45,927 nt of DNA from Minisyncoccota bacterium (GTDB lineage Bacteria; Patescibacteriota; Minisyncoccia; Minisyncoccales; CG1-02-41-26). Within the stretch, counting starts at the first letter, position 1. Each line of letters begins with the position of its first letter. Below the pieces are notes generated by a model that had not been told where the DNA came from, searched no databases, and saw nothing but the letters and a program-made list of their open reading frames with translations. The position numbers were made by a program, and so were the translations under genes. Shown here one piece after another: positions 6,654-45,129 of the stretch. Location of the stretch: the NCBI GenBank assembly GCA_028718965.1, contig JAQUKS010000003.1:1-45927 (forward strand). Reading direction: 5' to 3'.

Positions 6654-6752
6654 TTAATAAAAAATCGGCCAAAGCAGTGATATAACCAAGCTCAAAGATA
6701 CCAATGAAATTAAAATAATCCAAACTATCCTGAATGCTTTTTTTGTTTTCAT
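6654..6752 (-). CDS. hypothetical 32-aa hydrophobic peptide (not in ORF track)
   Basis: The reverse-strand ATG..TAA translates to MKTKKAFRIVWIILISLVSLSLVISLLWPIFY, a basic head followed by one TM-like helix. There is no obvious Shine-Dalgarno sequence and it would be the only protein gene on the minus strand. It is weakly supported. Confidence 0.2.
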   Translation of the reverse strand: MKTKKAFRIVWIILISLVSLSLVISLLWPIFY

Positions 6753-6803
6753 TTTTGTGTTAATAATATAGTTAAGCGAAAGCGGTTCTTGAATATTATA
6801 ATA

Positions 6804-7187: not shown

Positions 7188-7188
7188 C

Positions 7189-7259
7189 GCGAGAGTAGCA
7201 CAATGGCAGTGCGTTTGCTTCCCAAGCAAAACACGCGGGTCCGATTCCCGTCTCTCGCT
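7189..7259 (+). tRNA. tRNA-Gly (anticodon CCC)
   Basis: Manual cloverleaf: acceptor gcgagag/ctctcgc, D stem gcac/gtgc, anticodon stem tttgc/gcaaa with loop ttCCCaa, 4-nt variable loop, T stem gcggg/cccgt, discriminator U. No CCA is encoded. The T loop reads tccgatt, so U55 is replaced by C; see findings. Confidence 0.85.
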
Positions 7260-7316
7260 CATATTTTCTGATTTTCAATGTTTAAAAATTAGAAAGCAAT
7301 AATTAAGATATTCCGC

Positions 7317-7389
7317 GCCGATGTAGCTCAACTGGCAGAGCAGTCCCTTCGTAAGGGAAAGGTTGTCGGTTCAATTCCGACCATCGGCT
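7317..7389 (+). tRNA. tRNA-Thr (anticodon CGU)
   Basis: Acceptor gccgatg/catcggc, D stem gctc/gagc, anticodon loop ttCGTaa, T arm gtcgg-ttcaatt-ccgac. It is followed by a T8 run. Confidence 0.9.
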
Positions 7390-7438
7390 CTTTTTTTTCT
7401 GCTGAAAAATGCTATTATGAAATAGCAAGCCAAAGCCT

Positions 7439-8450: not shown

Positions 8451-8457
8451 GATTACT

Positions 8458-9147
8458 ATGATAAAATTCGATAACGTGTCGAAAATCTATAATGGCGACA
8501 ATGAGCCGATTTCAGCGGTGAGAGAGGTGTCTTTTACGATTCAAGAGGGAGAGTTCGTCTGTCTTGTCGGGAAATCCGGCGCTGGCAAGACAACGCTTAT
8601 CAAACTCTTAACCGGCAATGAAAAGCCCACTTGCGGCCAGGTTTTCTTCCGTGAGACAGATATCCACGGCATTGTTTCCGCTGATTTGCAAAAAATAAGG
8701 CGTAAAATCGGCGTTGTTTACCAAGATTACAGATTGTTGCAGACCAAAACTGTCTTTGAAAATTTGGCGTATGTTATGCAGGTTATCGGGATACCCGATA
8801 CTGACATAAACAGGGACATAGCCCAGGTTTTGGAGATTGTCGGCCTAGAAACAAGAGCTTGCAGCTTTCCCGCGGAGCTTTCTGGCGGTGAAAGGCAGCG
8901 TTTAGCTATTGCCCGCGCTTTGATACATCGCCCCGAGCTTATTGTCGCTGATGAGCCGACCGGCAATTTGGATCCTTATCACACTTTCGGAATAGTGCAG
9001 CTGTTCAAAAAAATAAGCCAGATGGGCGCCACGATTGTTCTGGCCACTCATAATAAAGAAATCGTCGATAACTTGAAAAAAAGAGTAATAACCCTGGAGC
9101 AGGGTCGGATTATTTCGGATGACCCCGAAGGAAAATTTATTTTATAA
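8458..9147 (+). CDS. ftsE: cell division ATP-binding protein FtsE
   Basis: ABC ATPase with Walker [10 protein letters not shown], signature LSGGERQR and Walker B LIVADEPT, about 230 aa, immediately upstream of an FtsX-like permease. The start is ATG 8458 ([11 protein letters not shown]). Confidence 0.9.
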
Positions 9148-9151
9148 TTTT

Positions 9152-10069
9152 ATGCTCATAAATTTAAAAAGAATTTTAAAATTCGGCTGGCATAGTTTTA
9201 GTCGTAACAAGGGGCTGGGCTTCCAGGTTATTTTCATTATGGCCACGGCGGTATTTTTTATTCTGGTTTTCTTTTTAGGCAGGGGAGTGGGGCGGACTTT
9301 ATTCGATGAGATGGGCCGGAAAGTCGACATTTCGGTTTATTTCAAAAGCGAAACCACCGAGCAGGAAATTTTAGAGGTTAAAAACCGTCTTTCTTCGCTT
9401 TCCGACAAAATCAAAACAATCGAATACGTTTCCAAGGAAAGGGCCCTTACCATTTTCAAGGCGGAGCACCAGAGCGACGATCTTTACCTGAATGCTCTGG
9501 AAGAAGCCAAGGAAAATCCTTTATTGCCGTCTTTGAACATCTATTCTGATGATCCGAATTATTACGCGAAAATATCTGGCTTCTTGAAAGAGCCGCCCAC
9601 TAACGATATCGTAGAGAAAATTTCTTACGAGCAACCCAAAAACAGGCAAGCCATTGAAACATTGGCTGCAATCGCCAAAGGTATCAAAATTGTCGGGATC
9701 ATCATAGTCGGCTTACTTGGCCTTTTGGTAATTATCATTACTTCAAATATTATCAAGCTTACTTTTATTGTTTTAAAAGATGAAATCAGTACTATGAAGC
9801 TTGTTGGCGCTTCCGACTGGTTCGTGAGGGGGCCGTTTATGATTCAGACTTTTTTCTATGGGTTGTTCGCCGTGATAATCGTTGATACTTTTTCAGGAAT
9901 TTTGCTGTATTTCATAAGCGGGAAAGCGATTCATTGGTTTTCCGAATTTAATATTTTTAGTTATTTTTTCAGTAATTTGGCGGTTATTTTCGGCTTTCAG
10001 CTGGGTTTTGTCGCTCTGTTGGGGGCGGTTTCCACTTTGCTGGTAATGCGCAAACACCTTAAGGCCTGA
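9152..10069 (+). CDS. ftsX: cell division permease-like protein FtsX
   Basis: N-terminal LKRILKFGWHSFSRNKGL + TM, an extracytoplasmic loop of roughly 110 aa, and three C-terminal TM helices, matching FtsX topology; it is coupled to ftsE. An alternative ATG lies at 9119. Confidence 0.85.
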   Translation: MLINLKRILKFGWHSFSRNKGLGFQVIFIMATAVFFILVFFLGRGVGRTLFDEMGRKVDISVYFKSETTEQEILEVKNRLSSLSDKIKTIEYVSKERALTIFKAEHQSDDLYLNALEEAKENPLLPSLNIYSDDPNYYAKISGFLKEPPTNDIVEKISYEQPKNRQAIETLAAIAKGIKIVGIIIVGLLGLLVIIITSNIIKLTFIVLKDEISTMKLVGASDWFVRGPFMIQTFFYGLFAVIIVDTFSGILLYFISGKAIHWFSEFNIFSYFFSNLAVIFGFQLGFVALLGAVSTLLVMRKHLKA

Positions 10070-10090
10070 TAATGCCATAGCCGATACTAT

Positions 10091-10163
10091 TGCGAGGTGG
10101 TGTAATTGGTAACACGTCGCGCTCTGGACGCGAAGACTCCAGGTTCGATCCCTGGCCTCGCAG
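10091..10163 (+). tRNA. tRNA-Gln (anticodon CUG)
   Basis: Acceptor tgcgagg/cctcgca (a U1-A72 pair, as in bacterial tRNA-Gln), D stem gtgt/acac, anticodon stem tcgcg/cgcga with loop ctCTGga, T arm ccagg-ttcgatc-cctgg, discriminator G. Confidence 0.9.
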
Positions 10164-10181
10164 CCGTGAATTTTGTACAGG

Positions 10182-10216
10182 AAACCGGGCTCGTTAAAGC
10201 CTGGTTTTTTGTTTAT
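10182..10216 (+). terminator. intrinsic terminator after tRNA-Gln
   Basis: A 9-bp stem, aaaccgggc (10182-10190) pairing with gcctggttt (10199-10207) with one G-U and an 8-nt loop, running into ttttttgtttattttt. Confidence 0.6.
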
Positions 10217-10248
10217 TTTTGGCTTAAAGTTATCCACAGTTTTTTAAT

Positions 10249-10276
10249 TTGACAGGCCATTTATGTAAGCTAAAAT
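10249..10276 (+). promoter_or_regulatory. candidate promoter of the giant gene
   Basis: TTGACA (10249-10254), a 16-nt spacer, then TAAAAT (10271-10276), about 37 nt upstream of ATG 10313 in an AT-rich spacer. Confidence 0.35.
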
Positions 10277-10312
10277 TATATAAATATATTCCATATCCAA
10301 TATCGGATTGTA

Positions 10313-13300
10313 ATGACAGAGCAAGAAATCAAAGTCAATAATTACATATCTCTGGCCGAGGCCGCCGCGATATATACTGAGCACTCTCAGGAGTATTTGA
10401 GTTTGCGGGCAAGGCAAGGAAAACTTAAAGCAATAAAAATCGGCCGAAACTGGCTCACTAAGAAAGAATGGGTCGAGAAATACGTCAGTCAGGTGAGTGA
10501 TAAAAATGGAAACAATGGTTCTATACGCGTATCCGATACTTTTCAAGAAGAGAAGCCGGTCTATCTGTCTTTGGCAGAAGCTGAAATTTATAGTGGGTAT
10601 TCGCAGGAATATTTGGGGTTGCGAGCGAGACAGGGGAAATTGCGCGCGGTAAAAATCGGCCGAAACTGGCTCACTAAGAAAGAATGGGTCGACGATTACA
10701 AGATTAAGTTAGGCATAAGTGAACGACGTTTACCTGTTGAACCCGGACTGACAAAAATTACCGCAATAGGGAGAATAGGGAGATTGCCGCAACCGGGAAA
10801 ACTTTTCCATCCGATAAAAGAAGCATTTCAAAATTTTATTTTTATCATTAAGGCGAAAAAACCAGCCATGATTCTCGGTGCGTTTCTGATTTTTTGTTCC
10901 GCGGGACTGGCTGCTGGCTACCCTTATGCTGAAAATTTCATGCGGAGTCTTTCTGGACATTCCGAAACCCAGCTTGGCAGCATTGTTTTAAGAGCGACTG
11001 AATTTGCCGGCTTGCTTGAAAATTCTGTTTCGAAAGATTATCAAAAAGCCTATTGGACTGCGGAAAAATTTTCTGAAAAATTTTATAGAATTAAAAATTC
11101 GTTCGCTTGGGCCGTTTCTCGTTCTTTAATCAATTTAGAGAAGTCAGTCCGGCAAAATAGAGATAATCTGACGAATATCGTCACGGCATCGGAGATATTG
11201 GAGGATTATCTGGAAAAGTCCATGGCTGTTTCCTGTTCTTCCACCTGGCAGGATTTCAGAAATAAAAACAATCTGGCTCAAGGATTTATCAATCGTTTTA
11301 CTGCCGATGAATACCAGCGCCGAAAACAAAAAGCCGATGATTTCGCCGAGCAGCTGGCGGCAGGCTGGGGAGATGTCGAATCATCTTTGAGCGACATCGG
11401 CCTGGAATTGAAACGCGTCGCGGAAGATTATTCGTCGCTGGCCGCTGATAATTTGCGTTACGGCAATTATTTTTTACAGAGCTATTTGGCAGGGGAGTGG
11501 GAAAGATTTCAACAGCAGAGCTATGAATTATTTGCGCTGTCTCGGGGCGCGAAGCATACGGTAGAAAAATTTTTCGCCGCCGGCCAAGAGAAAACTTTTG
11601 AATATCGAAATTCGATTTCCTCACGCACGTTTGGACGTCTGGAGTTCATTGAAAACGAATTTTTTGCCGATGTGACTGCTTCACGGCAGAGCTTTTATGA
11701 CTTTGCCGCTAAAGCTTTTGAAACCGGACTTCAACAAAAACAAAAAGCCGATGATTTCGCCGAGCAGCTGGCGGCAGGCTGGGGAGACGCGAAGTTATTT
11801 TTAAGTTATGCCAGTCTGAAGTTAAAACGCGTCGCGGAAGATTATTCGTCACTGGCCGCTGATAATTTGCGCTATAATTCGCAGGCTGTTTCTTATCACG
11901 TTAACCAATGGGGAGATGTCATAGCGGATCGGCTGGAAGATCTCAGCGGTGATTTGATTATAGGCGTCACGGAAAGAGTGAGTTCTTTCATCGCCCAGGC
12001 CAGCCTCAAAACCGAAGATGCCGCTTATGCCATCGCTTACGTAACGGGCTATCTGGCTTCATCGGGAGCTGATAATTTTCAACAGACAACCCAGTCATTA
12101 TGGGGAAAGATAATATCCAGCGCGGATGCGGTTGATAATAAAATCGTCGAGGGCGTACAGAATACAATGGACAGGTTAAGATTCCTTACATATATATCAG
12201 ATAAAGTCGGCGAAGATATAAAAAACGGTTATGAATTCGTGATGAATCCCTGGTGGAAAGGAGAGACCCGGCCGATTGCCGAAAAGCCGTCGCGAACCAT
12301 TAATATAGAGCCGTTCGATCCGTTTCCGGACGATGATGAGGAAGAGGCCGTTGAGGAAGAACAAGTTTTACCCGCTTCCGCGGAACAATCAATCGTTCAA
12401 GTTTCGCCTGTTAAAGGGACATCCGAATCCGCGCCTCGGGAAACGCTGATTCAGCCGACTAAAGAAATCACCCGTGAGATTTTGCGCATTGATGACGCCT
12501 CGCTGGCACTATTGAAAGGACAGGTAACGGAATTGCAGAAAAATTACGCAAGCATTGTGGGCTTGCAGGATTTGGCCGCCAAGATACAATCGGTCCCACC
12601 GGTTTATTCAGTGGCGGCTGCTTCACCGGTTTATGTCGGCTCGACCGGTATTCAAGTCGGCGGGGGAGCCAATTTAAATACTTTGGGAGTGAGCGGCTCG
12701 GTGGGCATCAGAAATTTGTCGGTCGGGGGTTCGGCTGAAATCGGCGAGACTTCAAGCGATGTTTTGACAGTAAACGCTTTTGCTGATTTTCTTTCCGATG
12801 TCATAGTGCGCAAAGATCTTGAGATCGCGGGCGACTTGACGATAGGGGGCAGCCAAAGCGGAGGAGGAGTTGTTTCGTTTTCAGCTTCAAGCTCTTCGCC
12901 GATTTTGACTTTGAATCAGACGGGTTCGGGGCAGATAGCGCAGTTCAAGGACGCGGGCAATGTTGTTTTTGAGATTGCAAAAGGCGGAGCTATAACGATA
13001 ACCTCCACTTCTTCTCCGCAGTTAAGGGTTGCTTACGATGGCTCAAATTATCTCATTCTTGAGGTTTCCTCCACCGGAGATGTTTCAGCGACCTCCACCG
13101 GAGCCTTGAGTCTTACCGCTAACGCCGCTTCCGTATGGCAAGTTGTTTCCGCCCCGCTCACCATAAAAACAGATACGAGCGGCGATATTATTCTGTCTTC
13201 AGCGGGCAATCTTACTCAAAAATTCGCGACAAGCTCGGCTTATGGCTTGTATCAGGGAGAAATCGCCCGCTTGGCCATTAATACCGCAGGAGATGTTTCT

Positions 13301-16300
13301 CTTACCGCTTCTTCAACCATAAGTTTGACTGGAAACGTAGGCATCGGCACTTCCTCTCCTGTAGCCAAGCTGGCCGTAGAAGGGAACACCTTTTTCCGGG
13401 GGAATACAACCACTACCGGCGATTTTTTCGTGGGAGGCAATACGACAACCACCAACCTTTACATTTCGAACATTCTAACTGCTGGGTATCTTGATGTTGC
13501 GGGAAACGCGACGACAACCGGGAATCTATTCGTTGGCGGTAATGCCACTACCAGCGGTGATCATTTTATTGGCGGCAGTCTGCAGGTAAACGGCAGTTCC
13601 ATTGTTTTGGGCACATCATCCACGGCTTATCTTGTCGTGAATTCGGCCGTGGCTTCCGATTTTGTCCCTGATCAAAACGCGGTGCGCAACTTAGGCTCGC
13701 CGGCTTATTTTTGGGATTTTGTTTATACTGGCACGCTGGTAGCCACCAGCATAGAGGCTGCCTCAAGCACGCTTGGCGGAACAGCCAGCGCCAACTTTGT
13801 GCTTAATGCCGATAATATTACCGCTGACAATGAAAACGCGAATTTGATTTTTTTCAGAGGCACGGTCGTGCCCAATGCCCTAATAACCTGGGATTCCACC
13901 GCCGATCGCTTTGACATCAATCAGCCGTTTTTTATTCAAAACGATTCTTCGACTACCACGGTAATATCTTTGGATGTTTGGGGATCTGCCGGCCAGAGCG
14001 CCGATCTATTCAGAGTATCTTCGTCATCGGATGACGCTTTTCTAAATGTCACTTCGGCCGGCAACGTGGGTATCGGGACAAGTAGCCCGGTGGCCAGATT
14101 TGCCGTTGAGGGGGACAGTTTTTTGCGGGGCAATGCCACCACTACCGGCATTTTTTACACTGAAGAAGGAATGACATCGGCTGGCAATATTTCCGTCAAT
14201 ACGGCGGACGTTGTTTTGGATTCGGGCAATTTGAATATTACCTCAGGAGGCATAACGCTTACTGACGGGAATTTTAATCTTAATAACGGCAACTTGTCTC
14301 TTGATGCTAACAGCAGTTTTTACGTTGCTTCGTTGACGCAGGGCTCGATACCGTTTATCGGTTCGGGCGGTATGCTGTTGGAAGATAATTCAAACCTATA
14401 CTGGAATGACACTACTAATAGATTAGGCGTCGGCACCACTACTCCGGCCGCAAAATTAGATGTTTGGGGAAGCTTTCAGGTCGGCACTTCCACTACGCCG
14501 GTTCTTACCCCGTTGTTTATCGCCAATACTGGTTCGGCCACTGTTGGCATCGGCACCTCGACTCCGGCCGCCAAATTCTCTATAGCGGGTTCGTCCGGCG
14601 TCAATGCTTTTAATGTTGCTTCTTCTTCCGGCGCTTCAATGTTAATGGTTGACCAGTACGGCAATGTGGGTATTGGTACTTCAAGCCCTGGAGCCAAGCT
14701 TGAGATAGCGGGCAACAAAGACGCTACCGAATTTGTCGTTCGGGCGAATTCTTCTCAATCCAACACTAATCCTTTGATAAAGCTTTTGTCGAACGGAGGA
14801 ACGGAATTGCTTCGCATTCATTCCGATAATGCCAACAATCTTTTTGTCGGCACCAACACCGGACGGGTCAACAATGTCTCCGGAGTGGGTAGTCAGGGTT
14901 TGTTTAACGCTTTTGTGGGAGCTAACGCCGGCTTTTCCAACACAACCGGATATCAAAACAGCGCCATGGGAGCCAATGCCCTTTACAGCAATAATACCGG
15001 CTACACTAACAGTGCCATGGGCTTTAATTCTTTGTTTTTCAATACCACCGGCTACCAGAACGCGGCCATGGGAGCCAATGCCCTTTATTCCAACATCTCC
15101 GGCTATACTAATACAGCGGTCGGCTCAAGCGCCCTTTATCTGAATACTGCGGGCTATGGCAACAGTGCTTTGGGAGTTTCGGCTATGCTTTCCAATACCA
15201 CAGGTTACGATAATCTGGCCGCGGGCAACAGCGCTTTGCTTTCCAACACCACGGGTTATTCTAACGTGGCTTTGGGTAGCTATGCTCTGTTCGGTAATTT
15301 GCCGACAAGCAAGGCCATTACCGCTTTCACTGATGCGGGCGGGGGCAACACCACGGTTACTTCAGAAAGCCATAATCTGAATAACGGCACGATTGTTCAG
15401 ATTTACGGCACGACCAATTACAACGGCTCTTATACTATTTCCGGAGTTACCGCCGATACCTTTAATATAGTCAAAGCTTTTGTGGCTGACGACGCCACCG
15501 GATGGTGGGGGATCGACAGCGAGGGAAGATACAACGTGGCTTTGGGCGGTAACGCGGGGCGAAGCAACACCACCGGCTCTGCCAATACCTTTATCGGCTA
15601 TAACGCCGGATACACTGGAACTTCGGCCAGTCTTACCAATGCGGCTTGTCTGGGCTACGAGTGCCAGGTGGCGGCCAGCAGCGCCTTGATCTTGGGTGGA
15701 ACAGGAGTTAACGCGGTGAAAGTGGGTGTTGGAACAACCACACCAAACTATGTTCTGGATATTCTTGGCGCCTCCGGCACCGGTTCTTTGCACATCGCTT
15801 CCTCGAGCGGATCCAGTATGCTTGCCGTCAATGAATATGGCAACGTCGGTATCGGCACGACCACGCCTTCGGCTAATTTCCATGTCGTTGGAACGGCGAC
15901 GACGAATTTATTTCAAGTTACACGCACAGGCGTCGGAACTTTTGGAATGTTGTTTGATGCTAATGCTGGTAATGGCGTATCGTTAAGATTCAGCGGAACT
16001 AATTTTGTCCGTTCGTCTGGAAATGGTGGTTTTTCCGTAGGTTCGTATGCCAGCAGTGCTTCAGGTTCTGCTGCCCCAGAAAATGGAATAATAGTTAGTG
16101 GCAAGGTAGGCATCGCCACTACTTCTCCCGTAGCCAAATTAGCCGTGGAAGGGGATACCTTTTTTAGAGGTAATACCACCACAACCGGTAATCTTTTCAT
16201 CGGAGGCAACGCCACCACCACTGATCTCTATGTTTCCAATGTTCTCACTGCCGGCTATCTTAATGTCAACGGCACTACCACTATCGCTGGCAATCTTGTT

Positions 16301-21856: not shown

Positions 21857-23344
21857 ATGTCAAGATTTGCCAAACAATCGTTATTTATTTTTTTGAGCTT
21901 TGCTATCTTGGTGACAGGGGCTTTAGTTATCTGGGCCGCCAACGCCGGAGGCAATTTGAAAATCAACCCTTATTTGGGCCATGATTTGGATTTAAATGCC
22001 GCTTATTATGCCCAGGCGGCCAACAACACGGTGCACGATATTACCACCCAGGACATTTCAATATCGGCCTGGGTTAAGATGGATACCGATAGCTCGGGAA
22101 CGATGTATATCCTGTCTAAGTATTTTCCCGGATACGCCTTGTATCTGGTCAATAATGCGGTTGACGCTGTGATTCGTGACGCAGAAGATACTTATCAGAT
22201 ATATAGAAGCAGCGGCGTTGAAATAAGGGATAATAAATGGCATCATCTGGCAGCTGTTTTTGACAGGGATACGGCCGGAAACTGCAGGGTTTTTATTGAC
22301 GGCCAGGAAAGCGGAGAAACGGTGAGAACGGGAACGCTGGCCAACATTGGTTCGATCAGTAACGCCTCCACCTTAGCCATCGGCCGGCGGTCCGGGTCAA
22401 CGAGCAATTACCTTGACGGCCAGGTGCGCGATGTCAAACTGTATTATGCTTCGGCTGACCACTGGACCGACAGCCAGATATTGTATCAATACCAGCACCC
22501 CTTTGATTACACTGGCACGGCCGGAACCACCGGTTCTTTGACCGACTACTGGAGATGCGACGAGGGGAGTGAGACAACTTTGTATGGTAAGGTGAATAAC
22601 CTTACTTTGTCATCGGCATCGGCTTGGTCTATACAACCTAAATTAAAAAACAATCCGAGCTCTACTGCCAAAGTCAAAGTATCCACCGGTCTGGTGGGAT
22701 ACTGGAAACTGGACGATGATTCGACAAGCTCAACCTCAGTCATTGATTACTCGGGCAAAGGCAACACCGGCACGGCCTACTCATCAACAGCCACCACCAC
22801 TTCCGTCCTTTCCACCACCACGGCCCAGATAGGCCGGGCGATGTATTTTGACGGGGTGAATGATCGTGTCTACGGAGGTGCTGGAGACAGTTTTAATTTT
22901 TCTTCTACCAATAAACTTACAGTTTCAGCTTGGGTTAAAATGGATGCGGATACCGGAACCAATCAAACTATATCCGGTAATTGGAGTTATCATCGCTTTC
23001 TTATCAAGCCCACTCTTTTATATTTTGGTTACTGGAATACCGCCGGGATAGAGCAAATAGTTTCCAATACTTATACTTTTGATCTGAATCAGTGGTATTA
23101 TGTGGCGGTGACGGTAAATGATAATGTTGTCACAAAGTATATTAATGGTGTTAGATCTTCTGATTCTCCGGCTATCAAAACCGGAACAATAAAAACTGGA
23201 AATCATGGAGTTTATATTGGCGCTCAAGACGGAAACGCTTATTGGTTTAGCGGCCTCATCGACGACGTCCGCATCTACAACTACGCCAGATCGGCCGAGC
23301 AGATTTTGCAGGATTACCAGCGCGGCCTCAACCATCTACCCTAA
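21857..23344 (+). CDS. anchored LamG-domain protein A (2 LamG/ConA-like domains)
   Basis: N-terminal MSRFAKQSLFIFLSFAILVTGALVIWA (basic head + TM). There are two jelly-roll-type units, ending GQVRDVKLYYASADHWTDSQILYQY and GLIDDVRIYNYARSAEQILQDYQRG. The second is the canonical Laminin_G_3 C-terminal motif. Confidence 0.85.
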   Translation: MSRFAKQSLFIFLSFAILVTGALVIWAANAGGNLKINPYLGHDLDLNAAYYAQAANNTVHDITTQDISISAWVKMDTDSSGTMYILSKYFPGYALYLVNNAVDAVIRDAEDTYQIYRSSGVEIRDNKWHHLAAVFDRDTAGNCRVFIDGQESGETVRTGTLANIGSISNASTLAIGRRSGSTSNYLDGQVRDVKLYYASADHWTDSQILYQYQHPFDYTGTAGTTGSLTDYWRCDEGSETTLYGKVNNLTLSSASAWSIQPKLKNNPSSTAKVKVSTGLVGYWKLDDDSTSSTSVIDYSGKGNTGTAYSSTATTTSVLSTTTAQIGRAMYFDGVNDRVYGGAGDSFNFSSTNKLTVSAWVKMDADTGTNQTISGNWSYHRFLIKPTLLYFGYWNTAGIEQIVSNTYTFDLNQWYYVAVTVNDNVVTKYINGVRSSDSPAIKTGTIKTGNHGVYIGAQDGNAYWFSGLIDDVRIYNYARSAEQILQDYQRGLNHLP

Positions 23345-23388: not shown

Positions 23389-26300
23389 ATGAAACTTTTT
23401 TCCAAACAATTATTGTTTATCGTCATTGCCGTTGTTATTCTGGCGACCGGAGCGGTTTTGATTTTCGCCATAAGCAGCAAAGGTATTCCGCCGATTGCCC
23501 TTTGGAAACTGGATGAAGGTAGCGGATCTTCCGTTTATGATAGCAGGAACAATGTTGCTGTCGGTAGGCTGGTCAATTCAGATGCTTCGCCAGCCACCTC
23601 AACCATGTGGGTGAGTGGTGTTTTTGGCACGGCTTTGAACTTTGACGGCGTCAATGACTATGTGGCCATAGGCAGTATTTCTTCTACCAGCTCCGGTTCG
23701 ATTTCCGCTTGGATAAAGCCGTCCGGAACTTATACCGGCTCCCAGGTAGTCGCGGCCGCGGTTTCCGCCGCGGGCGCTAACGAATCGGTAAGATATGAAC
23801 TCGGGGCGAGGGGCGCCGCTATATGTGCCAGCGGCGACTGGTTCACTGCTTTGGGCAACGGAACGACTTATCAGTTCGTTTGTTCCGGGCAGGTATACAA
23901 TTCGACCAATTTTCCTTCCGGCGTATGGGTGCATTTGTCCGTTACCTATGACGGCAGTAATGTGAGGTTTTACAAAAATGGCGCTTTGGTATCAACCGTT
24001 GCCCAGACAGTGAGCGCGGCCGGGGATGCCCAGCCATTTTCAATAGGCAGGACCGGAGGGTATAACGGAGGGTATTTTTCCGGTTCAATCGACGATGTGC
24101 GCATATACAACTACGCCCGCAATGCCGATCAGGTGAGACAGGATTATAATGCCGGAAAAGCGCTCTACGCGGGCCCCAGGGCTGTTGACTGCGAAAGCAA
24201 CCCGGCTGACTGCGTCAACAAGGGTCTGGTCGCTTACTGGGATCTCGACGAAATGTCCGGCCAGACAGCCAAAGACAAGACAGGCAACAATAACAACGCC
24301 ACCCTGGGAGCCAATTCCAGCCCTGCAGGCGACGATCCGACATGGTCCAGGGGTATCCAGCCCTTGTCAGGCGGCAAGACAGGCGGGGGAGGCCTTTATT
24401 TCGACGGCAGCAATGATTATGCGGTGGTAAGCGACGCCGATTCTTTGAGGGGAATGAGTGAGTTGACGGTTTCGGCCTGGGTGAAACTGAACGCTTACGT
24501 GGGCACCCAGGGAGCGAGAATCGTCCAGAAAGAGGCGGCCGCAATCGGCGATAACGGGAGTTATTGGCTAAGGGAAACGCCTTCGAACGATGCTGTTCCC
24601 AATACTTTTGGCTTTGCCATACAAGATACCACTACCGCTTTCAAAGAAATCAAAGACACGGCAACGCCTTCTCTTGACGTTTGGTATCACATTGTGGGAG
24701 TTTACAAGGCCGGCGATTTTATGAAGATGTATAGGAACGGCGTTGAAATAAGCACCAGTTCGGCAGCCGGCTATGGCGCGATAAGCGCTGAGCCCTACAA
24801 TTTGTTTGTCGGCTCGACCGGTACCCCGGGCAGATTTTTCAGGGGAACGATCGATAACGTGCGAGTTTACAACCGGGCGCTTTCGGTCGCTGAGGTGCGT
24901 TATCTTTATAATCAGGCGGGGCCTGTTGTCTGGTGGAAATTCGACGAATCGAGCTGGGCTTCAAGCAGTGGGGAGGTTAAAGACAGCGCGGGCAGTTACA
25001 ATGGGGCAGGCGTCAACGGGGCCAATACCACTTCAACAGCTGTTTTCGGCATGGCCGGAGTTTTTAACGGCAGCGATGACTATGTGGACGTGGGCACGGT
25101 GAGCATATCAGACAACGTTCCTTGGAGCGTGAGCTTGTGGATAAATGTGAGCAGTTTTGCCAGTTATCGAGGCATTTACGGCAACGCTTATACGGCCAGC
25201 AATTATACCCGGCTTATGCTTAATAATGTCGGCAATATTTATTTGTATAACGATGCCAACAGTTCCGCTGATTGGACTTCAACCGGCCTGGCTGCCGGAA
25301 GCTGGCAGCATTTGGCTGTCACTTGCGACGGCCAGACAACGGCCAATTGCTATGCTTATGTCAACGGCAAGGCATTGGCGGTAAAAACCCTGGCCAACTC
25401 CTCCCAGACCATTAAAAAAATCGGCAACTACGGCACGGCGTCCGAAGGCGTGTTCAGTGGTTTGATAGATAATTTTCGCATCTATAATTATGCCTTAACG
25501 GCCGATCAGGTCCGGCGCGATTACAACGGCGGCAAAGCTCTTTATGCCGGGGGCGGTTCGATACCCTCGGGCATTAGCTGCGATACCAACCCGGCCGCCT
25601 GTATTGCCGATGGTCTGGTCGCTTACTGGGATCTCGACGAAATGTCCGGCCAGACAGCCAAAGACAAGACAGGCAACAATAACAACGCCACCCTGGGAGC
25701 CAATTCCAGCCCTGCAGGCGACGATCCGACATGGTCCAGGGGTATCCAGCCCTTGTCAGGCGGCAAGACAGGCGGGGGAGGCCTTTATTTCGACGGCAGC
25801 AATGATTATGCCACCGGCACCTTGAGCACGCTTGTTGCTCCTTATTCGGTGGCGGGCTGGGTTAAGATAGATTCCACTTATCCGGCTAGCGAGGGCAGGT
25901 ATTTCTTTTGCCTCAATAGCGGAGGAAATGTGCCTTGCTTTTCGCCTCATTATTATAATAGCAGCAAACCCCTTATTTATCTTAATACCAGCAATTACCG
26001 TTATGGCTCCACTGATCTTAATGACAGTAGATGGCATCACATCGTTTTTATCGTGACCGGCAGCGGCCAGAGCGACATTTCAAACGCCAAAATTTACATT
26101 GACGGTAAAGAAGAAACATACGGCACTACTTTGGCCACTGACAGCCCGGTTTCTCCGGGGACTAATTTCAGTATTGGTAGCGGCAAGTATAAGGGCTGGT
26201 TGGATGGAGTGCGTGTTTATAACCGTGTTTTGTCGGCCGCCGAGGTGCGTTATCAATACAACCAGAGCAAGCCGGTGGCTCACTGGAAAATGGACGAGGG

Positions 26301-39465: not shown

Positions 39466-40680
39466 ATGAAAATTGATTTTATCGAAGCCAGAGAAATCCT
39501 TACTTCTAAGGGAAACCCTACGGTGGAGGTTTGTCTGGTAACGGATAAGGGCCGGTTTATCGCCTCGGCGCCTTCGGGCGTTTCCACGGGCGATTACGAG
39601 GCCGTGGAAATTCCGGCACACGAGGCAGTCAAGAAGATAGTTGAGATTGAATCTTTGCTTAAGGGCCGCGATTTTTCCGGCCAGGAAGAGTTCGATGGCT
39701 TTTTAATCAAACAGGACGGCACGGGAAACAAATCAAGCCTGGGGGCCAATGCCATGCTCGCATTGTCCATAGCTTTCGCCCGGGCCGCCGCTTTTGAGAG
39801 CAATCAGGAACTTTTTGATTATCTCTCGCGGGAAATTTTTTCTTCTCCCGCAGTGGCGAACAAAATGCCTGTTCCAGCTATGTTATGTCTGGAGGGTGGC
39901 AGGCACGGCAAGGGAAAGGCGAGCATACAGGAGTTCATTGTTGTGCCTCAAAAAAACAGCTTTGAAAAAAATTTCGCAGCCGGACGAATGATTTTCAACG
40001 CGCTAAAAAGCATTTTGGAGAAGGATCTGGGTAAAGACGCTTTCGAGGCGGGCGTTGAAGGGGCTTTTGCTTTAAAAAATTTAAATTCAGAGGAGGCTCT
40101 TTCTTTTTTAAACAGAGCGATTGACGAATCCGGCAATAAAGGCGCGAAAATCTATCTGGACATTGCCGCTTCAGAATTTTTTCAAAACCAAATCTATTTT
40201 TTTGACGGGCGGGAAATCGAGGCTGCCGGGTTGGCGGATTTTTACGATGAAATCACCGGCCGGTATCCGGTAAGTTTTATCGAAGACCTTTTCAGCCAGG
40301 ACGACGCGGCAAACTGGCATAATTTTAAGGCGAAAACTGAAAACCAGGGATTAAAAGTTATCGGAGACGACCTCACTGTAACCAATTCGCAAAGAATACG
40401 ATACGCCCAAGAAAACGGCCTTTGCAACGGAGTAATTATCAAGCCGAATCAAATCGGCACGGTTTGGGAAACATTACAGGCAGTGGCGCTGGCCAAGGAA
40501 TTCGGCTGGAAAATCATTGTTTCGCACAGAGCCGGCGAAACCGAAGACAGTTTTATCGCCGATCTGGCCGTGGCCGTGGCCGCTGACTTCATCAAAGCGG
40601 GAGGCTTGAGTCAGTCAGTGAGAATGGCCAAATATAACAGACTTTTAGAAATTGAAAAATCATTGTTGAGCCCATCCTAA
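39466..40680 (+). CDS. eno: enolase (phosphopyruvate hydratase)
   Basis: IEAREILTSKGNPTVEV, SGVSTGDYEAVE, IKPNQIGT, SHRAGETEDSFIADLAV. Confidence 0.92.
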   Translation: MKIDFIEAREILTSKGNPTVEVCLVTDKGRFIASAPSGVSTGDYEAVEIPAHEAVKKIVEIESLLKGRDFSGQEEFDGFLIKQDGTGNKSSLGANAMLALSIAFARAAAFESNQELFDYLSREIFSSPAVANKMPVPAMLCLEGGRHGKGKASIQEFIVVPQKNSFEKNFAAGRMIFNALKSILEKDLGKDAFEAGVEGAFALKNLNSEEALSFLNRAIDESGNKGAKIYLDIAASEFFQNQIYFFDGREIEAAGLADFYDEITGRYPVSFIEDLFSQDDAANWHNFKAKTENQGLKVIGDDLTVTNSQRIRYAQENGLCNGVIIKPNQIGTVWETLQAVALAKEFGWKIIVSHRAGETEDSFIADLAVAVAADFIKAGGLSQSVRMAKYNRLLEIEKSLLSPS

Positions 40681-40704
40681 AATCCGGTGTCGACACCGGA
40701 TTTT
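40679..40704. terminator. perfect palindrome / bidirectional intrinsic terminator after eno
   Basis: aaaatccggtgtc|gacaccggatttt: an 11-bp stem around a tcga loop, flanked by A4 and T4. Confidence 0.6.
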
Positions 40705-40721
40705 AGAAGTTCAACGAACAT

Positions 40722-40946
40722 AAAACCAATGAATAGCAACAGAGCCTTCACCCTCATCGAACTCCTTGTCGTAATAGCCATCATCGGCATCTTAGCCTCC
40801 ATTGTAATCGTGTCCTTTCCCACCGCCACCCAGAAAGCCAGGCTGGCCAAGACTCTCTCCTGGGCCGGAAGCGTGAGCCACTCCCTGGGATCAAGTGCCG
40901 TTGGCATCTGGACCTTTGACAACATCTCCGGAACAACCGTCTATGA
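40722..40946 (+). repeat. 225-bp perfect direct repeat, copy 1 (pilin 5' module)
   Basis: aaaaccaATGaatagcaacagagccttc...ggaacaaccgtctatga is identical to 44032-44256 (offset 3,310 nt). This is confirmed by identical translations on both strands in the track (40677-40925(-) versus 44020-44235(-)). Confidence 0.92.
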
Positions 40947-41529
40947 TGATTCGGGCAACGACAACAACGGCACCATCTCGGGAGCCACGGTGGTTGACGG
41001 CGTGGTGGACAAGGCCCTCTCCTTTGACGGGGTGAATGATTATCTCAATCTTACGGGCATTTCGACGAACAACGGAGGCAATTTGACGATTGCTTTTTGG
41101 GCGAACTTTCTCGTTTATGATGGCACTGACTTCATACTCGATATTGAAACAGGCAGATTGCTCATCGGTCTGAACGGAGGCAATTTTCGATTTTATGACA
41201 CTACCTGGAAAGACTACGGATCAGGGGTCGGAGTTTCTTCTTATTTGAACGCGTGGCATCATTATGTTTTTGTTTTTAACGCTAACGCGAATCCGGATGT
41301 CGCTCAACTATATATTGACGGATACCTGAATGGAACGAACAGCACGTATTCGGCGAGGGATGTCGGCGGCGCAGTTGCTTTGATGGCCCGCTATTCGAGA
41401 GACCAAGCGTTTGTAAGGGGCATAATCGACGATTTACGTATTTACGGGGAGCCTTTTGTCCAGGCACAAGTCGAGCAGCTCTACGCCCAGGGCCTGGAAA
41501 ATCATCGGAATTTAGTTATGGAAATATAG
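40729..41529 (+). CDS. type IV pilin-like protein with C-terminal LamG domain
   Basis: Class III (prepilin) signal MNSNRA|FTLIELLVVIAIIGILASIV with Glu at +5, then a LamG unit (WTFDNISGTTVYDDSGNDNNGTI ... GIIDDLRIYGEPFVQAQVEQLY). The start is ATG 40729 rather than the track's 40687. Confidence 0.85.
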   Translation: MNSNRAFTLIELLVVIAIIGILASIVIVSFPTATQKARLAKTLSWAGSVSHSLGSSAVGIWTFDNISGTTVYDDSGNDNNGTISGATVVDGVVDKALSFDGVNDYLNLTGISTNNGGNLTIAFWANFLVYDGTDFILDIETGRLLIGLNGGNFRFYDTTWKDYGSGVGVSSYLNAWHHYVFVFNANANPDVAQLYIDGYLNGTNSTYSARDVGGAVALMARYSRDQAFVRGIIDDLRIYGEPFVQAQVEQLYAQGLENHRNLVMEI

Positions 41530-41570
41530 GCCCGAAATAGCCGGTTCCGTAACAGCGGATAATTGTTTCG

Positions 41571-41579
41571 TGTTATAAT
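41571..41579 (+). promoter_or_regulatory. candidate extended -10 promoter element for ppsA
   Basis: TGtTATAAT lies 22 nt upstream of ATG 41601. No clear -35 box is present. Confidence 0.3.
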
Positions 41580-41600
41580 TCATAATCAAACAAATTTTTT

Positions 41601-44042
41601 ATGGAAAAAGAAAAGAACGAAAAATATCTTTTGTGGTTGGATGAAATCGGCAAAGACGACGTTGCTTTGGTGGGGGGCAAGAATGCTTCTCTTGGGGAAA
41701 TGTATTGCCATTTGACCTCGCAGGGCATAAGAATCCCCAACGGTTTTGCTTTGACAGCCAAGGCCTATTGGCATTTTTTGAAGTTCAACCATTTGGACGA
41801 CAAGCTATCCGACATTTTTTATCGCTTCAACCGGCAGAGCCTGGTAAGCCTGGCTAAAACCGGTCAGGCGGCCAGAAGCCTTATCTTAAAGGCGCAATTT
41901 CCGCCGGATTTGATTCAAGAGATAAAAAAAAGTTACAGAGAGCTTTGTAGCCAGGCCGGTAAGCGTAATCTGGCCGTGGCGGTGCGCTCGTCAGCGACCG
42001 CCGAGGACCTGAAAGGAGCGAGTTTCGCGGGAGCTATGGAAACATATCTTAACGTAAGCGGCGAACAGAATTTGCTCAACGCTATCAAGAAGTGCATTTC
42101 TTCTTTGTTTACCGACAGGTCAATAGCTTATCGCGAAGAAAAGGGTTTTGACCATCTCAAGATAGCTTTGTCGGCGGGAGTTCTGCAGATGGTAAGAAGC
42201 GATTTGAGTTCTTCAGGCGTAATGTTTACTTTGGACACTGAAACCGGTTTTCGCAACGTCGTGGTAATAAATTCCATCTATGGAGTAGGGGAGATGATTG
42301 TAAAGGGCCGCGTCACCCCCGACGAGTTCATTGTTTTTAAGCCGGCCCTGGAAGAAGGCTTCCGTTCGATTATCGTTAAAAATTTAGGCCAGAAACAGAA
42401 AAAATACGTTTACAAAAAAAACGGGGGGCTTAAGGAGGCGGCCGTGCCATTAGCCCAGCAAAAAAGTTTTTCCCTTGGCGAGGATGAAATTATCACTTTA
42501 GCCCGATGGGCGATGAAAATCGAAAAATATTATGATTTTCCGCAGGATATCGAGTGGGCCAAGGACGGTAAAACCGGCGAATTATTTATCGTGCAATCAC
42601 GGCCCGAAACCGTGCAAACCGAAAAAAAGGCTTCTGTTTTTCAAGAATACCGGATCGAAGCCCCTGGCGAAGCGCTTCTAGAAGGTATTGCCGTAGGCAA
42701 TAAAATCGGAAAAGGCGCCGCGCATATAATTAAAAATGTGGCACAGCTGTCTCAATTCAAAAAGGGCGAGGTGCTGGTAACCAAAATGACTGACCCGGAC
42801 TGGGTGCCGGCTCTTCGTTTGGCTTCAGCTGTGATAACCGATGAAGGATCAAGGGTTTGCCACGCCGCCATTGTATCACGAGAATTGGGTATCCCGTGCA
42901 TCGTGGCTACTGGGGCCGGCAGCAGGATATTAAAAAGTGGCCAAATGATAACAGTTGATTGTTCAAGCGGCTCAAAAGGCAAGGTTTATAAGGGGGATAT
43001 ACCTTTTGAGGTTAAAGAATATGATTTACAGGGAATACCGCCCTTGCCGGTAAAACTTACAGCTAACATTGGCAGTCCGGAAATCGCTTTTCAAAACTCT
43101 TTTTTGCCTGTTGAGGGCGTGGGCCTGGCAAGAGAGGAGTTCATTATAGCGGAAAAAATAAAAGTACACCCTCTCGCTTTAATTCATTACAATGAATTAA
43201 AGCATGGAAAGTTTTCGGCTTCCGGCTTCGGGACTTCGGACGAATCGCGAATTGCGAAACTGAAAATCCAAAAGATTATAAGGGAAATCGACAGAATAAC
43301 CCTTGAACACCATGATAAACAGGAGTATTTCGTTAGAGAGTTGGCCGAAGGTATCGGTAAGATTGTCGCGGCTTTTTGGCCAAAACCCGTGATAGTGCGC
43401 TTTTCCGATTTTAAAACAAATGAATACAGCCAGCTGGTGGGCGGTGAGCTATTCGAGCCGCAGGAAGAAAACCCGATGATTGGCTGGCGGGGGGCCTCGC
43501 GTTATTATGATGAAAAATTCAAGCCAGCCTTTTTAATGGAATGCGAGGCCATCAAACGGGTACGGGATGTGTTTGGCCTGAAAAATTTGAAAGTGATGAT
43601 TCCTTTTTGTCGTACACCTGAGGAAGGCAAAAAAGTGATTGAAATTATGCGCCAATCAGGCATTGAGCAGGGTAAAGACGGCTTTGAAATTTACGTAATG
43701 TGCGAGATTCCTTCCAACGTGATTTTGGCGGAACAATTTTTAGAAATTTTCGACGGGATGAGCATCGGCTCAAATGATTTGACCCAGCTTACCCTTGGCA
43801 TGGACAGAGATAATGGCGGGCTTTCGCATATTGGCGATGAAAGAAACGAAGCAATCAAAAAAATGCTCAAGCAAGTTATCGCTATCTGCAGAGAAAAAGG
43901 CAAGTATTGCGGTATTTGCGGTGACGCGCCGTCTTCGTTTCCTGATTTTGCGGATTTTTTGATTGATTGCGGCATTGAATCGATTTCTTTGTCTCCGGAC
44001 GCGGTAATTAAAACAATTTTTATTTTAGCGAAAAACCAATGA
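41601..44042 (+). CDS. ppsA: phosphoenolpyruvate synthase (pyruvate, water dikinase)
   Basis: VALVGGKNASLGEM, the phosphohistidine swivel motif TDEGSRVCHAAIVSRELGIPCIV, and the C-terminal PEP-utilising TIM barrel (MSIGSNDLTQL). Its stop TGA overlaps the ATG of the short pilin (ATGA). Confidence 0.92.
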   Translation: MEKEKNEKYLLWLDEIGKDDVALVGGKNASLGEMYCHLTSQGIRIPNGFALTAKAYWHFLKFNHLDDKLSDIFYRFNRQSLVSLAKTGQAARSLILKAQFPPDLIQEIKKSYRELCSQAGKRNLAVAVRSSATAEDLKGASFAGAMETYLNVSGEQNLLNAIKKCISSLFTDRSIAYREEKGFDHLKIALSAGVLQMVRSDLSSSGVMFTLDTETGFRNVVVINSIYGVGEMIVKGRVTPDEFIVFKPALEEGFRSIIVKNLGQKQKKYVYKKNGGLKEAAVPLAQQKSFSLGEDEIITLARWAMKIEKYYDFPQDIEWAKDGKTGELFIVQSRPETVQTEKKASVFQEYRIEAPGEALLEGIAVGNKIGKGAAHIIKNVAQLSQFKKGEVLVTKMTDPDWVPALRLASAVITDEGSRVCHAAIVSRELGIPCIVATGAGSRILKSGQMITVDCSSGSKGKVYKGDIPFEVKEYDLQGIPPLPVKLTANIGSPEIAFQNSFLPVEGVGLAREEFIIAEKIKVHPLALIHYNELKHGKFSASGFGTSDESRIAKLKIQKIIREIDRITLEHHDKQEYFVRELAEGIGKIVAAFWPKPVIVRFSDFKTNEYSQLVGGELFEPQEENPMIGWRGASRYYDEKFKPAFLMECEAIKRVRDVFGLKNLKVMIPFCRTPEEGKKVIEIMRQSGIEQGKDGFEIYVMCEIPSNVILAEQFLEIFDGMSIGSNDLTQLTLGMDRDNGGLSHIGDERNEAIKKMLKQVIAICREKGKYCGICGDAPSSFPDFADFLIDCGIESISLSPDAVIKTIFILAKNQ

Positions 44043-44256
44043 ATAGCAACAGAGCCTTCACCCTCATCGAACTCCTTGTCGTAATAGCCATCATCGGCAT
44101 CTTAGCCTCCATTGTAATCGTGTCCTTTCCCACCGCCACCCAGAAAGCCAGGCTGGCCAAGACTCTCTCCTGGGCCGGAAGCGTGAGCCACTCCCTGGGA
44201 TCAAGTGCCGTTGGCATCTGGACCTTTGACAACATCTCCGGAACAACCGTCTATGA
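44032..44256 (+). repeat. 225-bp perfect direct repeat, copy 2 (pilin 5' module)
   Basis: See copy 1 (40722-40946). Confidence 0.92.
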
Positions 44257-44299
44257 AGGGCTGGAAAGCCATCGTGATTTGGCACTAATTCGGCAATAA
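44039..44299 (+). CDS. short (86 aa) type IV pilin-like protein lacking the LamG head; may be a functional headless pilin or a deletion derivative
   Basis: The first 72 residues are identical to the pilin at 40729. After ..GTTVY it joins directly to EGLESHRDLALIRQ, which parallels the last residues of the long form (QGLENHRNLVMEI). Confidence 0.5.
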   Translation: MNSNRAFTLIELLVVIAIIGILASIVIVSFPTATQKARLAKTLSWAGSVSHSLGSSAVGIWTFDNISGTTVYEGLESHRDLALIRQ

Positions 44300-44324
44300 A
44301 TCCGTAGAAAAACACCCCGCCATC

Positions 44325-44349
44325 TTGAAAGTGGCCGAGCCACTTTCAA
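44325..44349 (+). repeat. REP-B hairpin copy 1 (ttgaaagtggc-cga-gccactttcaa)
   Basis: An 11-bp perfect stem with a 3-nt loop, 8 nt upstream of ATG 44358. The track's TTG start at 44325 lies inside it. Confidence 0.9.
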
Positions 44350-44357
44350 AAAATTAC

Positions 44358-45080
44358 ATGCGAAAAATAATTTTTGCAAACGATGAGTATTTTCATATTT
44401 TTAACCGAGGGTCTAACAAGCAGGATATTTTTCTTGAAGAAGAAGATTTTTGGAAATTTTTTGATGGACTTCGCGACTTGAATAACACAACTTGCTATGA
44501 AGACCGATTGAATGCTTTAGGTCTTTCTGTCCATTCCCGTAATTCGCTTGGTAAATTAGAATTTCAAGGACTTCGCTCTTTTCTCAGCGAGAAAGAAAAA
44601 GTTGTTGAAATTATCTCTTATTCTTTTAGCCCTAATCATTTTCACTTGATAATAAAACAGCTATGCGACAAGGGTATTTCATACTTGATGCATAAATTAG
44701 GCGGGAGTTATACGCTTTATTTCAATAAAAAACATAATCGATCGGGCCATATTTTCCAAGGGCCGTTTAAGGCGATTCATATTGATAGCAACGATTATCT
44801 TCTATGGCTAATGGGCTATGTTAATGGAAACATAGAAATACATAACCTCGCTCAGGCAGATAACTATAATTGGTCAAGCTATCGCGCTCTTTGCAAGTGG
44901 CTCGGCCACTTTCAATCTTCATCCTCGGCTTCGTTGTCGCCTTTGTCGGTGTTGGGCGGGTTAGATGTTATTTCGGAGCAGTTTAAAACCGTTGCTGATT
45001 TTCAAGATATGGTTAAAACAGTTGTTCGGGAAAGCCGCGCAAAAAAAGAAATGAAAAATTATTTATTAGAAAAAATATAA
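44358..45080 (+). CDS. IS200/IS605 TnpA-like (Y1 HUH) REP-associated tyrosine transposase-like protein 2
   Basis: YFHIFNRGSNKQDIFLEEEDFWKFFDGL, an intact HUH (SPNHFHLIIKQ), MHKLGGSYTLYFNKKHNRSGHIFQGPFKAIHIDSNDYLLWLMGYVNGN (candidate catalytic Tyr). It is flanked by REP-B hairpins. Confidence 0.8.
   Translation: MRKIIFANDEYFHIFNRGSNKQDIFLEEEDFWKFFDGLRDLNNTTCYEDRLNALGLSVHSRNSLGKLEFQGLRSFLSEKEKVVEIISYSFSPNHFHLIIKQLCDKGISYLMHKLGGSYTLYFNKKHNRSGHIFQGPFKAIHIDSNDYLLWLMGYVNGNIEIHNLAQADNYNWSSYRALCKWLGHFQSSSSASLSPLSVLGGLDVISEQFKTVADFQDMVKTVVRESRAKKEMKNYLLEKI
44891..44915 (-). repeat. REP-B hairpin copy 2, inverted (loop tcg), inside the RAYT-like CDS
   Basis: ttgcaagtggc-tcg-gccactttcaa, with one stem mismatch. 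It encodes ..LCKWLGHFQS.. Confidence 0.8.
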
Positions 45081-45092
45081 AAAATAAAAGTG

Positions 45093-45129
45093 TTGAAAGT
45101 GGCCGAGCCACTTTCAGAGCCACTTTGAA
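45093..45129 (+). repeat. REP-B hairpin copy 3 plus an extra 3' arm
   Basis: ttgaaagtggc-cga-gccactttca (45093-45116), followed by ga-gccactttgaa (45119-45129), a second copy of the 3' arm. Confidence 0.85.

Follow-up and report, generated by a model that had tools for sequence, protein, structure and literature searches.

A headless pilin gene behind ppsA in a Patescibacterial contig: its probable origin in the deletion of a LamG head, and an exact 225-nucleotide repeat

What does it mean when two type IV pilin genes on either side of a housekeeping gene have exactly the same 5' end, and only one of them encodes a pilin head? The question is raised by a contig of Minisyncoccota bacterium (Patescibacteriota; GenBank assembly GCA_028718965.1, contig JAQUKS010000003.1), of which we have analyzed positions 1 to 45,927 (the window, i.e. 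the whole stretch of 45,927 nucleotides, nt). In this window the phosphoenolpyruvate (PEP) synthase gene ppsA separates a long pilin gene (pilin A) from a short one (short pilin B). We give a probability of roughly two in three to the following answer: A and B are paralogs that both belong to a family of pilins with an N_methyl N-terminus and a LamG head, B has lost its head by deletion, A is an addition specific to the lineage of the window, and the 5' ends of the two genes have been homogenised. The argument turns on the following elements (aa, amino acids).

40722 to 40946, forward strand: 5' module, copy 1, with leader AAAACCA, prepilin leader MNSNRA, alpha-1 helix and first beta strands, to ..GTTVY
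40729 to 41529, forward strand: pilin A, 266 aa, with class III signal/N_methyl, alpha-1 stalk, LamG (ConA-like lectin) head and C-terminal helix, according to Pfam, AlphaFold2 and Foldseek
41487 to 41529, forward strand: tail 1, QGLENHRNLVMEI and stop, the C-terminus of pilin A with the family motif
41601 to 44042, forward strand: ppsA (PEP synthase, 813 aa), with all three PEP-synthase Pfam domains
44032 to 44256, forward strand: 5' module, copy 2, of which the first 11 nt double as the end of ppsA (K N Q stop)
44039 to 44299, forward strand: short pilin B (86 aa), in which tail 2 directly follows the 5' module in frame; N_methyl only
44257 to 44299, forward strand: tail 2, (E)GLESHRDLALIRQ and stop, near the family consensus EGLExHxDLA

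A repeat search of the window returned 40722-40946 and 44032-44256 as identical at 225 out of 225 nt, in direct orientation and with a start-to-start spacing of 3310. Such a repeat cannot be the product of chance, and it is with high probability real and biological. Each copy consists of the 7-nt leader AAAACCA, the ATG (40729 and 44039) and codons 1-72 plus 2 nt of codon 73, and specifies MNSNRA followed by FTLIELLVVIAIIGILA.. up to ..GTTVY. The borders are sharp, with T (40721) facing A (44031) on the 5' side and TGATTC facing AGGGCT on the 3' side. On the left the repeat begins 7 nt ahead of the ATG; in copy 2 these 7 nt are coding sequence of ppsA, whose stop codon TGA (44040-44042) overlaps the start of short pilin B as ATGA. 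Only two genes in the window carry a pilin motif, and both have a start codon and the full 5' module. An earlier note, made from the letters of this DNA, had described the exact identity of the two segments and their content, the LamG head on the long gene, the direct joining of ..GTTVY to a tail in the short gene, the ATGA overlap with ppsA and the homologous but diverged tails; all of these descriptions held in our analysis.

Pilin A is a typical member of the Patescibacterial N_methyl + Laminin_G_3 pilins, which consist of an N-terminal module, a head and a ..LYAxGLxxHxxLA tail, and the short gene keeps both of these constant ends. More specifically, PF07963 (N_methyl) matches both pilins (E 1e-8 and 2e-9, above the cut-off) and PF13385 (Laminin_G_3) matches pilin A (E 3.8e-17), while the N-terminal methylation and cleavage motif of type IV pilins is present with Glu at +5 (MNSNRA/FTLIELL..). 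The AlphaFold2 model of pilin A (predicted local distance difference test, pLDDT, 82.8) is a lollipop in which helices (residues 9-28 and 33-55) are followed by a beta sandwich (57-239) and a C-terminal helix (245-258); it has the long hydrophobic alpha-1 helix and subsequent globular domain of a type IV pilin. According to Foldseek the predicted head resembles lectin-like jelly rolls (clostridial neurotoxin HCN and carbohydrate-binding domain 4 of the arabinanase AbnA; E ~1e-11). The family to which pilin A belongs is found in Patescibacteria and comprised 560 matches below 1e-5, typically ~250-300 aa in length, the best being only 50% identical. Its C-terminus (..LYAxGLxxHxxLAxx or ..QQLYAEGLxTHQNLAxx) is conserved in ~60 homologues, with Y252, G255 and L262 invariant or nearly so in an alignment of 61 sequences. 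Both tail 1 (QLYAQGLENHRNLVMEI in the motif alignment) and tail 2 ((Y)EGLESHRDLALIRQ) have this conserved end, and tail 2 is the nearer of the two to the family consensus. Since the C-termini of the family are conserved, the tail of the short gene is a genuine pilin C-terminus. At the DNA level tail 1 and the full-length form of tail 2 are identical at 52 of 69 aligned nt (~75%).

After the module, short pilin B has only 14 further codons (..GTTVY-EGLESHRDLALIRQ and stop). N_methyl is its sole Pfam match found and the Laminin_G_3 head is absent; its product retains the alpha-1 helix, the initial strands and the terminal part of the last helix, and has no globular domain. In terms of structure, the deleted part is the beta sandwich, starting near residue 73 and reaching as far as the end of the C-terminal helix. 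The earlier note had suggested a functional division, in which the short gene would provide a headless, filament-forming pilin and the long gene an occasional head-bearing one. Put as a two-pilin design, the 86-aa protein would be a selected stalk subunit that co-assembles with the LamG pilin via the identical alpha-1 interface, and conversion would be maintained for that reason. In its favour, the short open reading frame (ORF) is uninterrupted and in frame and encodes a complete class III signal with Glu5, the ATGA overlap would permit translation coupled to that of ppsA, and very short pilins, e.g. PilA-N of Geobacter, are known elsewhere. Nevertheless, a HMMER search with the 86-aa protein against 1.84 billion representative proteins returned, below 1e-30, only the protein itself and pilin A, and there was no conserved headless homologue among the best 150 matches. 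The short matches that were inspected (89-154 aa) were all fragments that continue from the module into a head, and none was fused to a tail. Moreover, the single-sequence model of the short protein is of low confidence past the helix. A metagenome scan with the family alignment matched on generic N_methyl patterns only and returned unrelated pilins.

The genomic context of ppsA in related genomes provides a second line of evidence against such a design. Relatives were recovered through ppsA, the identity of which ranges from 73 to 81% for those that have a pilin after ppsA. In the relative L089 (ppsA 77% identical at the aa level), ppsA overlaps by ATGA with a full-length 269-aa LamG pilin gene (P0005), which is followed by a hairpin, Y1_Tnp (78% aa), PfkB and L25. 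The closest relative, L090 (81%), has a ppsA ending on ..LAKSL and an ATGA overlap into MKKGFTLLELLVVIAIIG.., where the contig ends, and L092 (73%) has a hairpin and then a pilin reading into ..YDDSGNNNN on the 3' side of ppsA. L001 (75%) and L091 (74%) have no pilin after ppsA and keep the order ppsA-(Y1)-PfkB-L25. The right flank in the window (pilin, Y1_Tnp-like gene, PfkB) has the order of L089, and its elements are the following.

44325 to 44350, no strand: palindrome TTGAAAGTGGCCGAGCCACTTTCAA, between the short pilin gene and the Y1_Tnp-like gene; L089 and L001 have a hairpin in this position too, but of another sequence
44358 to 45080, forward strand: Y1_Tnp (IS200-like) family gene, with syntenic counterparts in L089 (78% aa) and L001 (30% aa); a marker of the right flank, which is conserved as ppsA-(pilin)-Y1-PfkB

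Because relatives carry a pilin directly after ppsA, short pilin B is the positional counterpart of a normal pilin. The slot holds a full-length pilin in L089 and one that reaches into the head in L092, which argues against a selected headless subunit; the ATGA overlaps in L089 and L090 likewise indicate that the coupling to ppsA was inherited from a full-length arrangement. The region upstream of ppsA is devoid of a pilin in L090, L092 and L001, whose contigs reach that side (the contigs of L089 and L091 start inside ppsA, with the upstream side outside view), so pilin A is a lineage-specific addition. The earlier note had pointed to relatives for one-copy and two-copy states: a pilin fills the slot after ppsA in L089, L090 and L092, and L090 and L092 have no second one upstream of ppsA. 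Downstream gene B would thus be the ancestral pilin of this clade, in which the pilin follows ppsA, often with an ATGA overlap, and precedes the Y1_Tnp-like gene and PfkB, whereas upstream gene A would be the extra copy. Two other arrangements were considered and rejected: integration of a LamG-ppsA circle into the short pilin gene by a Campbell-type event conflicts with ppsA-pilin-Y1-PfkB being the ancestral order, and tail 2 is not the native 3' end of ppsA split by an inserted module, as the ..LAKNQ end matches the ..LAKSL end of relatives and tail 2 fits the pilin consensus in the pilin frame. Indeed, the ppsA end ..KTIFILAKNQ is homologous to ..KTILSLAKSL (L089) and ..KTILNLAKSL (L090), so that ppsA is not truncated and its C-terminus is native. 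The closest matches of the window's ppsA are labelled Gribaldobacteria or Pacebacteria.

How the head was lost can be read from sequencing runs. The locus was found in four runs (X1-X4) of one landfill-metagenome study, in the form of k=31 Logan contigs. The short junction is real: it is seen in X1 (depth 11.4), in X3 (a 340-nt contig, 44053-44392) and in X4 (44226-44305, depth 2), and that it is the main allele of X1 and recurs in three runs would suit a selected stalk subunit. However, X4 also holds a full-length allele. A second contig, of 193 nt and depth 2, differs from 44254-44305 at a single position and has TACCCAGGCCCAGGTTCAGCAGCTTTACGC before the matching part; it reads ..CAGCAGCTTTACGC followed by TGAAGGGCTGG.., translating to ..QQLYAEGLESHRDLALIRQ and stop, and carries ..CAGCAGCTTTACGCTGAAGGG... 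Both contigs end at 44305 and merge into one contig (44276-44352), where depths of 2 and 2 become 3.8, and the joined full-length sequence ends on ..TQAQVQQLYAEGLESHRDLALIRQ and stop, the C-terminus of a full-length LamG pilin with tail 2. Comparison of the alleles defines the junction as follows.

44254 to 44256, forward strand: deletion junction with the 3-nt microhomology TGA, between the module ..GTCTA[TGA]TGATTC and the full-length tail ..TACGC[TGA]AGGGCT

As the TGA has the same codon phase at both breakpoints, the reading frame is preserved across the deletion, which has the appearance of an accident at a microhomology. The head of gene B in the window haplotype would then have been lost as a whole, by a single recent in-frame deletion between two TGA triplets, and the right end of the 225-nt repeat would be the breakpoint of this deletion rather than the limit of a conversion tract. 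At this one site the deleted allele seems to occur side by side with the intact one. Taken with the occupied slot in relatives and the outcome of the homologue search, the full-length X4 allele and the accidental look of the junction make both the division of labour proposed in the earlier note and the two-pilin design improbable; the 86-aa product would rather be a decaying or neutral remnant than a selected subunit. The coexistence of alleles could also be viewed as a head-on/head-off switch at the level of the population, where a stalk-only subunit with the same assembly interface as the lectin-headed paralog is kept because it thins out or hides the adhesin of the filament, and homogenisation of the 5' ends keeps the two able to co-assemble. 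We give this only a small chance; if true, the switch would change host range or help to evade phages that use the head. The X4 contig that receives both tails departs from the window right after the palindrome, from 44352 onward (TACCATAAAT versus AAATTACATG), so the right flank must differ in one or more X4 strains.

A further element of the preferred answer is the likeness of the 5' ends. Identity of 100% over 225 nt against ~75% in the tails requires a recent homogenisation or copying of the 5' end. Such a mosaic pattern runs through the whole family. In the contig L006 (JGI Ga0315277_10001226, 1-14286) at least 17 N_methyl + LamG pilin genes stand in tandem with 4-nt (ATGA) overlaps, the array ending on enolase; the mean pairwise nt identity is ~88% over the first 210 nt, ~33% in the head and 70-90% over the last 110 nt, and the longest exact shared run is 100 nt. 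L008 (9168-11697) has three such genes, again with 4-nt overlaps, and next come ftsZ and an NTP-transferase gene, both of which are also found in the window some 4 kb upstream of pilin A. In paralog pairs from three contigs the N-terminal blocks are identical at 33-39 of 40 positions (77/80 over the N-terminus) against ~20-35% in the head. ATGA-coupled starts and homogenised 5' ends also occur in L006, L008 and L089. The headless state of the short gene was found in no other member. The window further differs from the tandem arrays in that a housekeeping gene, ppsA, separates its copies and in that 225/225 exceeds the longest exact run of L006. The arrays of L006, L007 and L008, with their constant 5' and 3' ends and unalignable heads, look like a hypervariable adhesin repertoire, and no description of such pilin arrays was found in the literature searched.

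By analogy with these arrays, the 5' ends of A and B may have been kept alike by gene conversion or by recent copying, and A-to-B conversion and B-to-A copying both fit. The earlier note had proposed old paralogs with a recent 5' gene conversion: the age of the 3' ends and the recent homogenisation or copying of the 5' ends stand, and conversion is a plausible mechanism for the latter. A simpler history would be a single recent illegitimate or template-switch event, without gene conversion, that copied the leader and 5' module between the loci, either by pasting the module of A before the remnant tail of a decayed B or by making the present 5' end of A from B. The identity borders are sharp with no similarity in the flanks, the 7 nt of the repeat that are ppsA coding sequence in copy 2 hint that the block came from the ppsA-B junction, and L090, L092 and L001 lack an equivalent of pilin A upstream of ppsA, all of which suits one step. 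Yet the full-length X4 allele implies that an intact gene still ended in tail 2 not long ago, and a head deletion has to be postulated as a separate event in any case; this deletion already accounts for the right border, and homogenised 5' ends are the rule in the family. A one-step origin is therefore a possible but doubtful alternative to homogenised paralogs with a head deletion in B.

Several observations weigh against the preferred account. In X1 the core of the module (40743-40946; 44053-44256) has a depth of 39.6 versus ~7 in the flanks, and a 35-nt contig of depth 27 forms a third in-edge at 40743, with upstream sequence unlike both the enolase side and the ppsA side; the module must thus be present in further loci or strains of the X1 sample. 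The X1 depths are unbalanced (3.9 at the ppsA junction, 11.4 at the short junction, 39.6 in the core) and no k=31 contig spans the 225-nt repeat. The full-length allele is a single 193-nt contig of depth 2 in one run, and could stem from a closely related strain and not from the same population. With the deletion in frame and the ATGA start coupled, the short gene might still be expressed, and gene conversion is argued only from the contrast of 100% versus 75%, a picture that other recent copying would give as well.

The depth of the core, the third in-edge and the repeat that no read or contig spans are what one would expect if several strains or loci had been mis-threaded through the repeat and the two pilins never flanked ppsA in one genome. 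In addition, the contig of L090 breaks exactly inside the pilin N-terminus, and position 40974 is C in the window and G in the closely matching contigs of X1 and X2 (ACC to ACG, synonymous), from which it follows that the window contig was probably assembled from another sample or a minor variant. Against this, all four junctions are exact contigs in X1, namely enolase side-module (40503-40751, depth 6.8), module-head (40917-41031, 26.4, with the synonymous G at 40974), ppsA-module (43691-44061, 3.9) and module-tail 2 (44227-44305, 11.4), and the head of A, tail 1, spacer and ppsA lie in one 2706-nt contig (unitig) of depth 7.35. The unique segments are equal in depth (6.8 for the enolase side, 7.35 for the LamG-ppsA body, 7.41 for the downstream side), the order ppsA-pilin-Y1-PfkB occurs independently in L089 and the ppsA-pilin ATGA overlap in L090, and the sole alternative threading would still put a pilin 5' module after ppsA. 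An assembly artefact is thus unlikely, and mis-threading to the extent that no genome has both pilins around ppsA is very improbable, although the threading across the repeat is itself unproven, being based on the equality in depth and the synteny with L089 and L090 and not on direct linkage. The equal depths also argue against a sizeable subpopulation in which ppsA is deleted or the unit amplified: the deletion or amplification of the 3.3-kb unit that the earlier note had foreseen is mechanistically possible, but has left no sign in these X1 depths. A second ppsA haplotype was considered for the drop in depth at 43690-43720 (7.35 to 3.9) and rejected, as the branch is a conserved 31-mer shared with the ppsA of another organism, which does not by itself account for the drop.

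No RNA run contains the locus, exact-protein look-ups with ppsA, the short pilin and the long pilin in two versions differing in start codon found no record, and an exact 60-mer of the module had 0 matches in the genome contigs and in the metagenome contigs searched.

Several known pilin systems invite comparison. In the pilE/pilS genes of Neisseria and tfpQ/tfpI of Moraxella a constant 5' region is combined with a variable 3' region, and recombination between copies shapes the repertoire. The Patescibacterial family shares with these a common N-terminal constant region and variable, receptor-exposed parts. However, unlike in pilE/pilS both copies in the window have a start codon and the full 5' module, and the outcome is loss of the head, not its exchange; the repeat search of the window revealed none of the silent, promoterless, partial cassettes that are a feature of pilE/pilS. 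An invertible switch of the Piv/tfpQ-tfpI kind does not apply either, since the repeats are direct and the scanned ORFs include no recombinase except the Y1_Tnp-like gene. The PilA-N protein of Geobacter sulfurreducens is a conserved short pilin, the gene of which is paired with a downstream PilA-C gene. It is similar to the short pilin of the window in having a mature product of ~80 aa with little beyond the alpha-1 helix, but the short gene lacks a conserved counterpart among the best 150 matches and is followed by a Y1_Tnp-like gene, and hence is not a conserved truncated pilin of this type.

Comparable in architecture are the lectin-like minor (tip) pilins of Nanosynbacter lyticus TM7x (Saccharibacteria), PilX1 with a beta-jelly-roll and PilX2 with a beta-propeller C-terminal domain, which are encoded in pilus loci (PMC11623550). 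These are lollipop pilins too, with an extra beta-rich, putatively glycan-binding domain that is thought to mediate host binding in episymbiotic Patescibacteria. Unlike in the TM7x loci, there is no gene of the pilus machinery (prepilin peptidase, assembly ATPase, platform) among the window ORFs scanned. A preprint on the Pam pilus (10.64898/2026.03.03.709456) was considered as a parallel and dropped, as it describes an unrelated donor-strand system. The literature on Patescibacteria supports a role of pili, lectin-like pilins and ConA-like proteins in host attachment (PMC11623550, PMC12911398).

LamG-headed pilins are strong candidates for host recognition by ultrasmall episymbiotic bacteria, and the locus can be seen as a snapshot of the turnover of an adhesin repertoire, in which the constant 5' ends of paralogs are identical while heads are gained, diverge and, as here, are deleted. 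It is a good small case of such turnover and not a new kind of system. Two practical warnings follow for annotation and assembly: short "pilin" ORFs in genomes of this kind can be deletion remnants, and identical 5' modules break or mis-thread short-read assemblies, as illustrated by L090, which ends exactly there. The arrays of the relatives, in which 17 or more ATGA-coupled pilins combine constant ends with hypervariable lectin heads, are probably the more interesting lead.

The surroundings of the two pilin genes have some features of their own. One precedes pilin A.

40680 to 40705, forward strand: perfect 26-nt hairpin AAAATCCGGTGTCGACACCGGATTTT, which begins at the enolase stop codon; read from the sequence

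From this hairpin to the ATG of pilin A there are 23 nt, in which a consensus scan finds no promoter; pilin A may be expressed by read-through or from an unusual promoter. On the other side of ppsA, the position of the Y1_Tnp gene, after ppsA/pilin and before PfkB, is constant in three genomes (window 44325-45119, L089 2234-3005, L001 8584-9411), so it behaves as a resident rather than a mobile gene. The hairpins just before its ATG are alike in shape and unlike in sequence (GAAAGTGGC-CGA-GCCACTTTC, GTAAGGCGC-TTG-GCGCCTTAC and CAGGGGTC-TGA-CCCCTG). The palindrome of the window has three copies (44327, 44893 within the ORF, and 45095), reminiscent of REP/RAYT elements, and a second, weak Y1_Tnp ORF is located at 32283-33029.

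Further upstream, a cluster of very large, probable surface proteins occupies 10313-32234 of the window. It includes a 3835-aa ORF without Pfam match, followed by proteins with 2, 6 and 6 Laminin_G_3 domains (21857-23344, 23389-27615 and 27951-32234), none of which has a pilin N-terminus. Finally, some homologues of ppsA are ~1200 aa long (L005 4852-8415; P0271) and have the extra Pfam domains PF14528 and PF14890, which we take to be LAGLIDADG and intein-splicing domains and which would suggest an intein-containing ppsA in related Patescibacteria.

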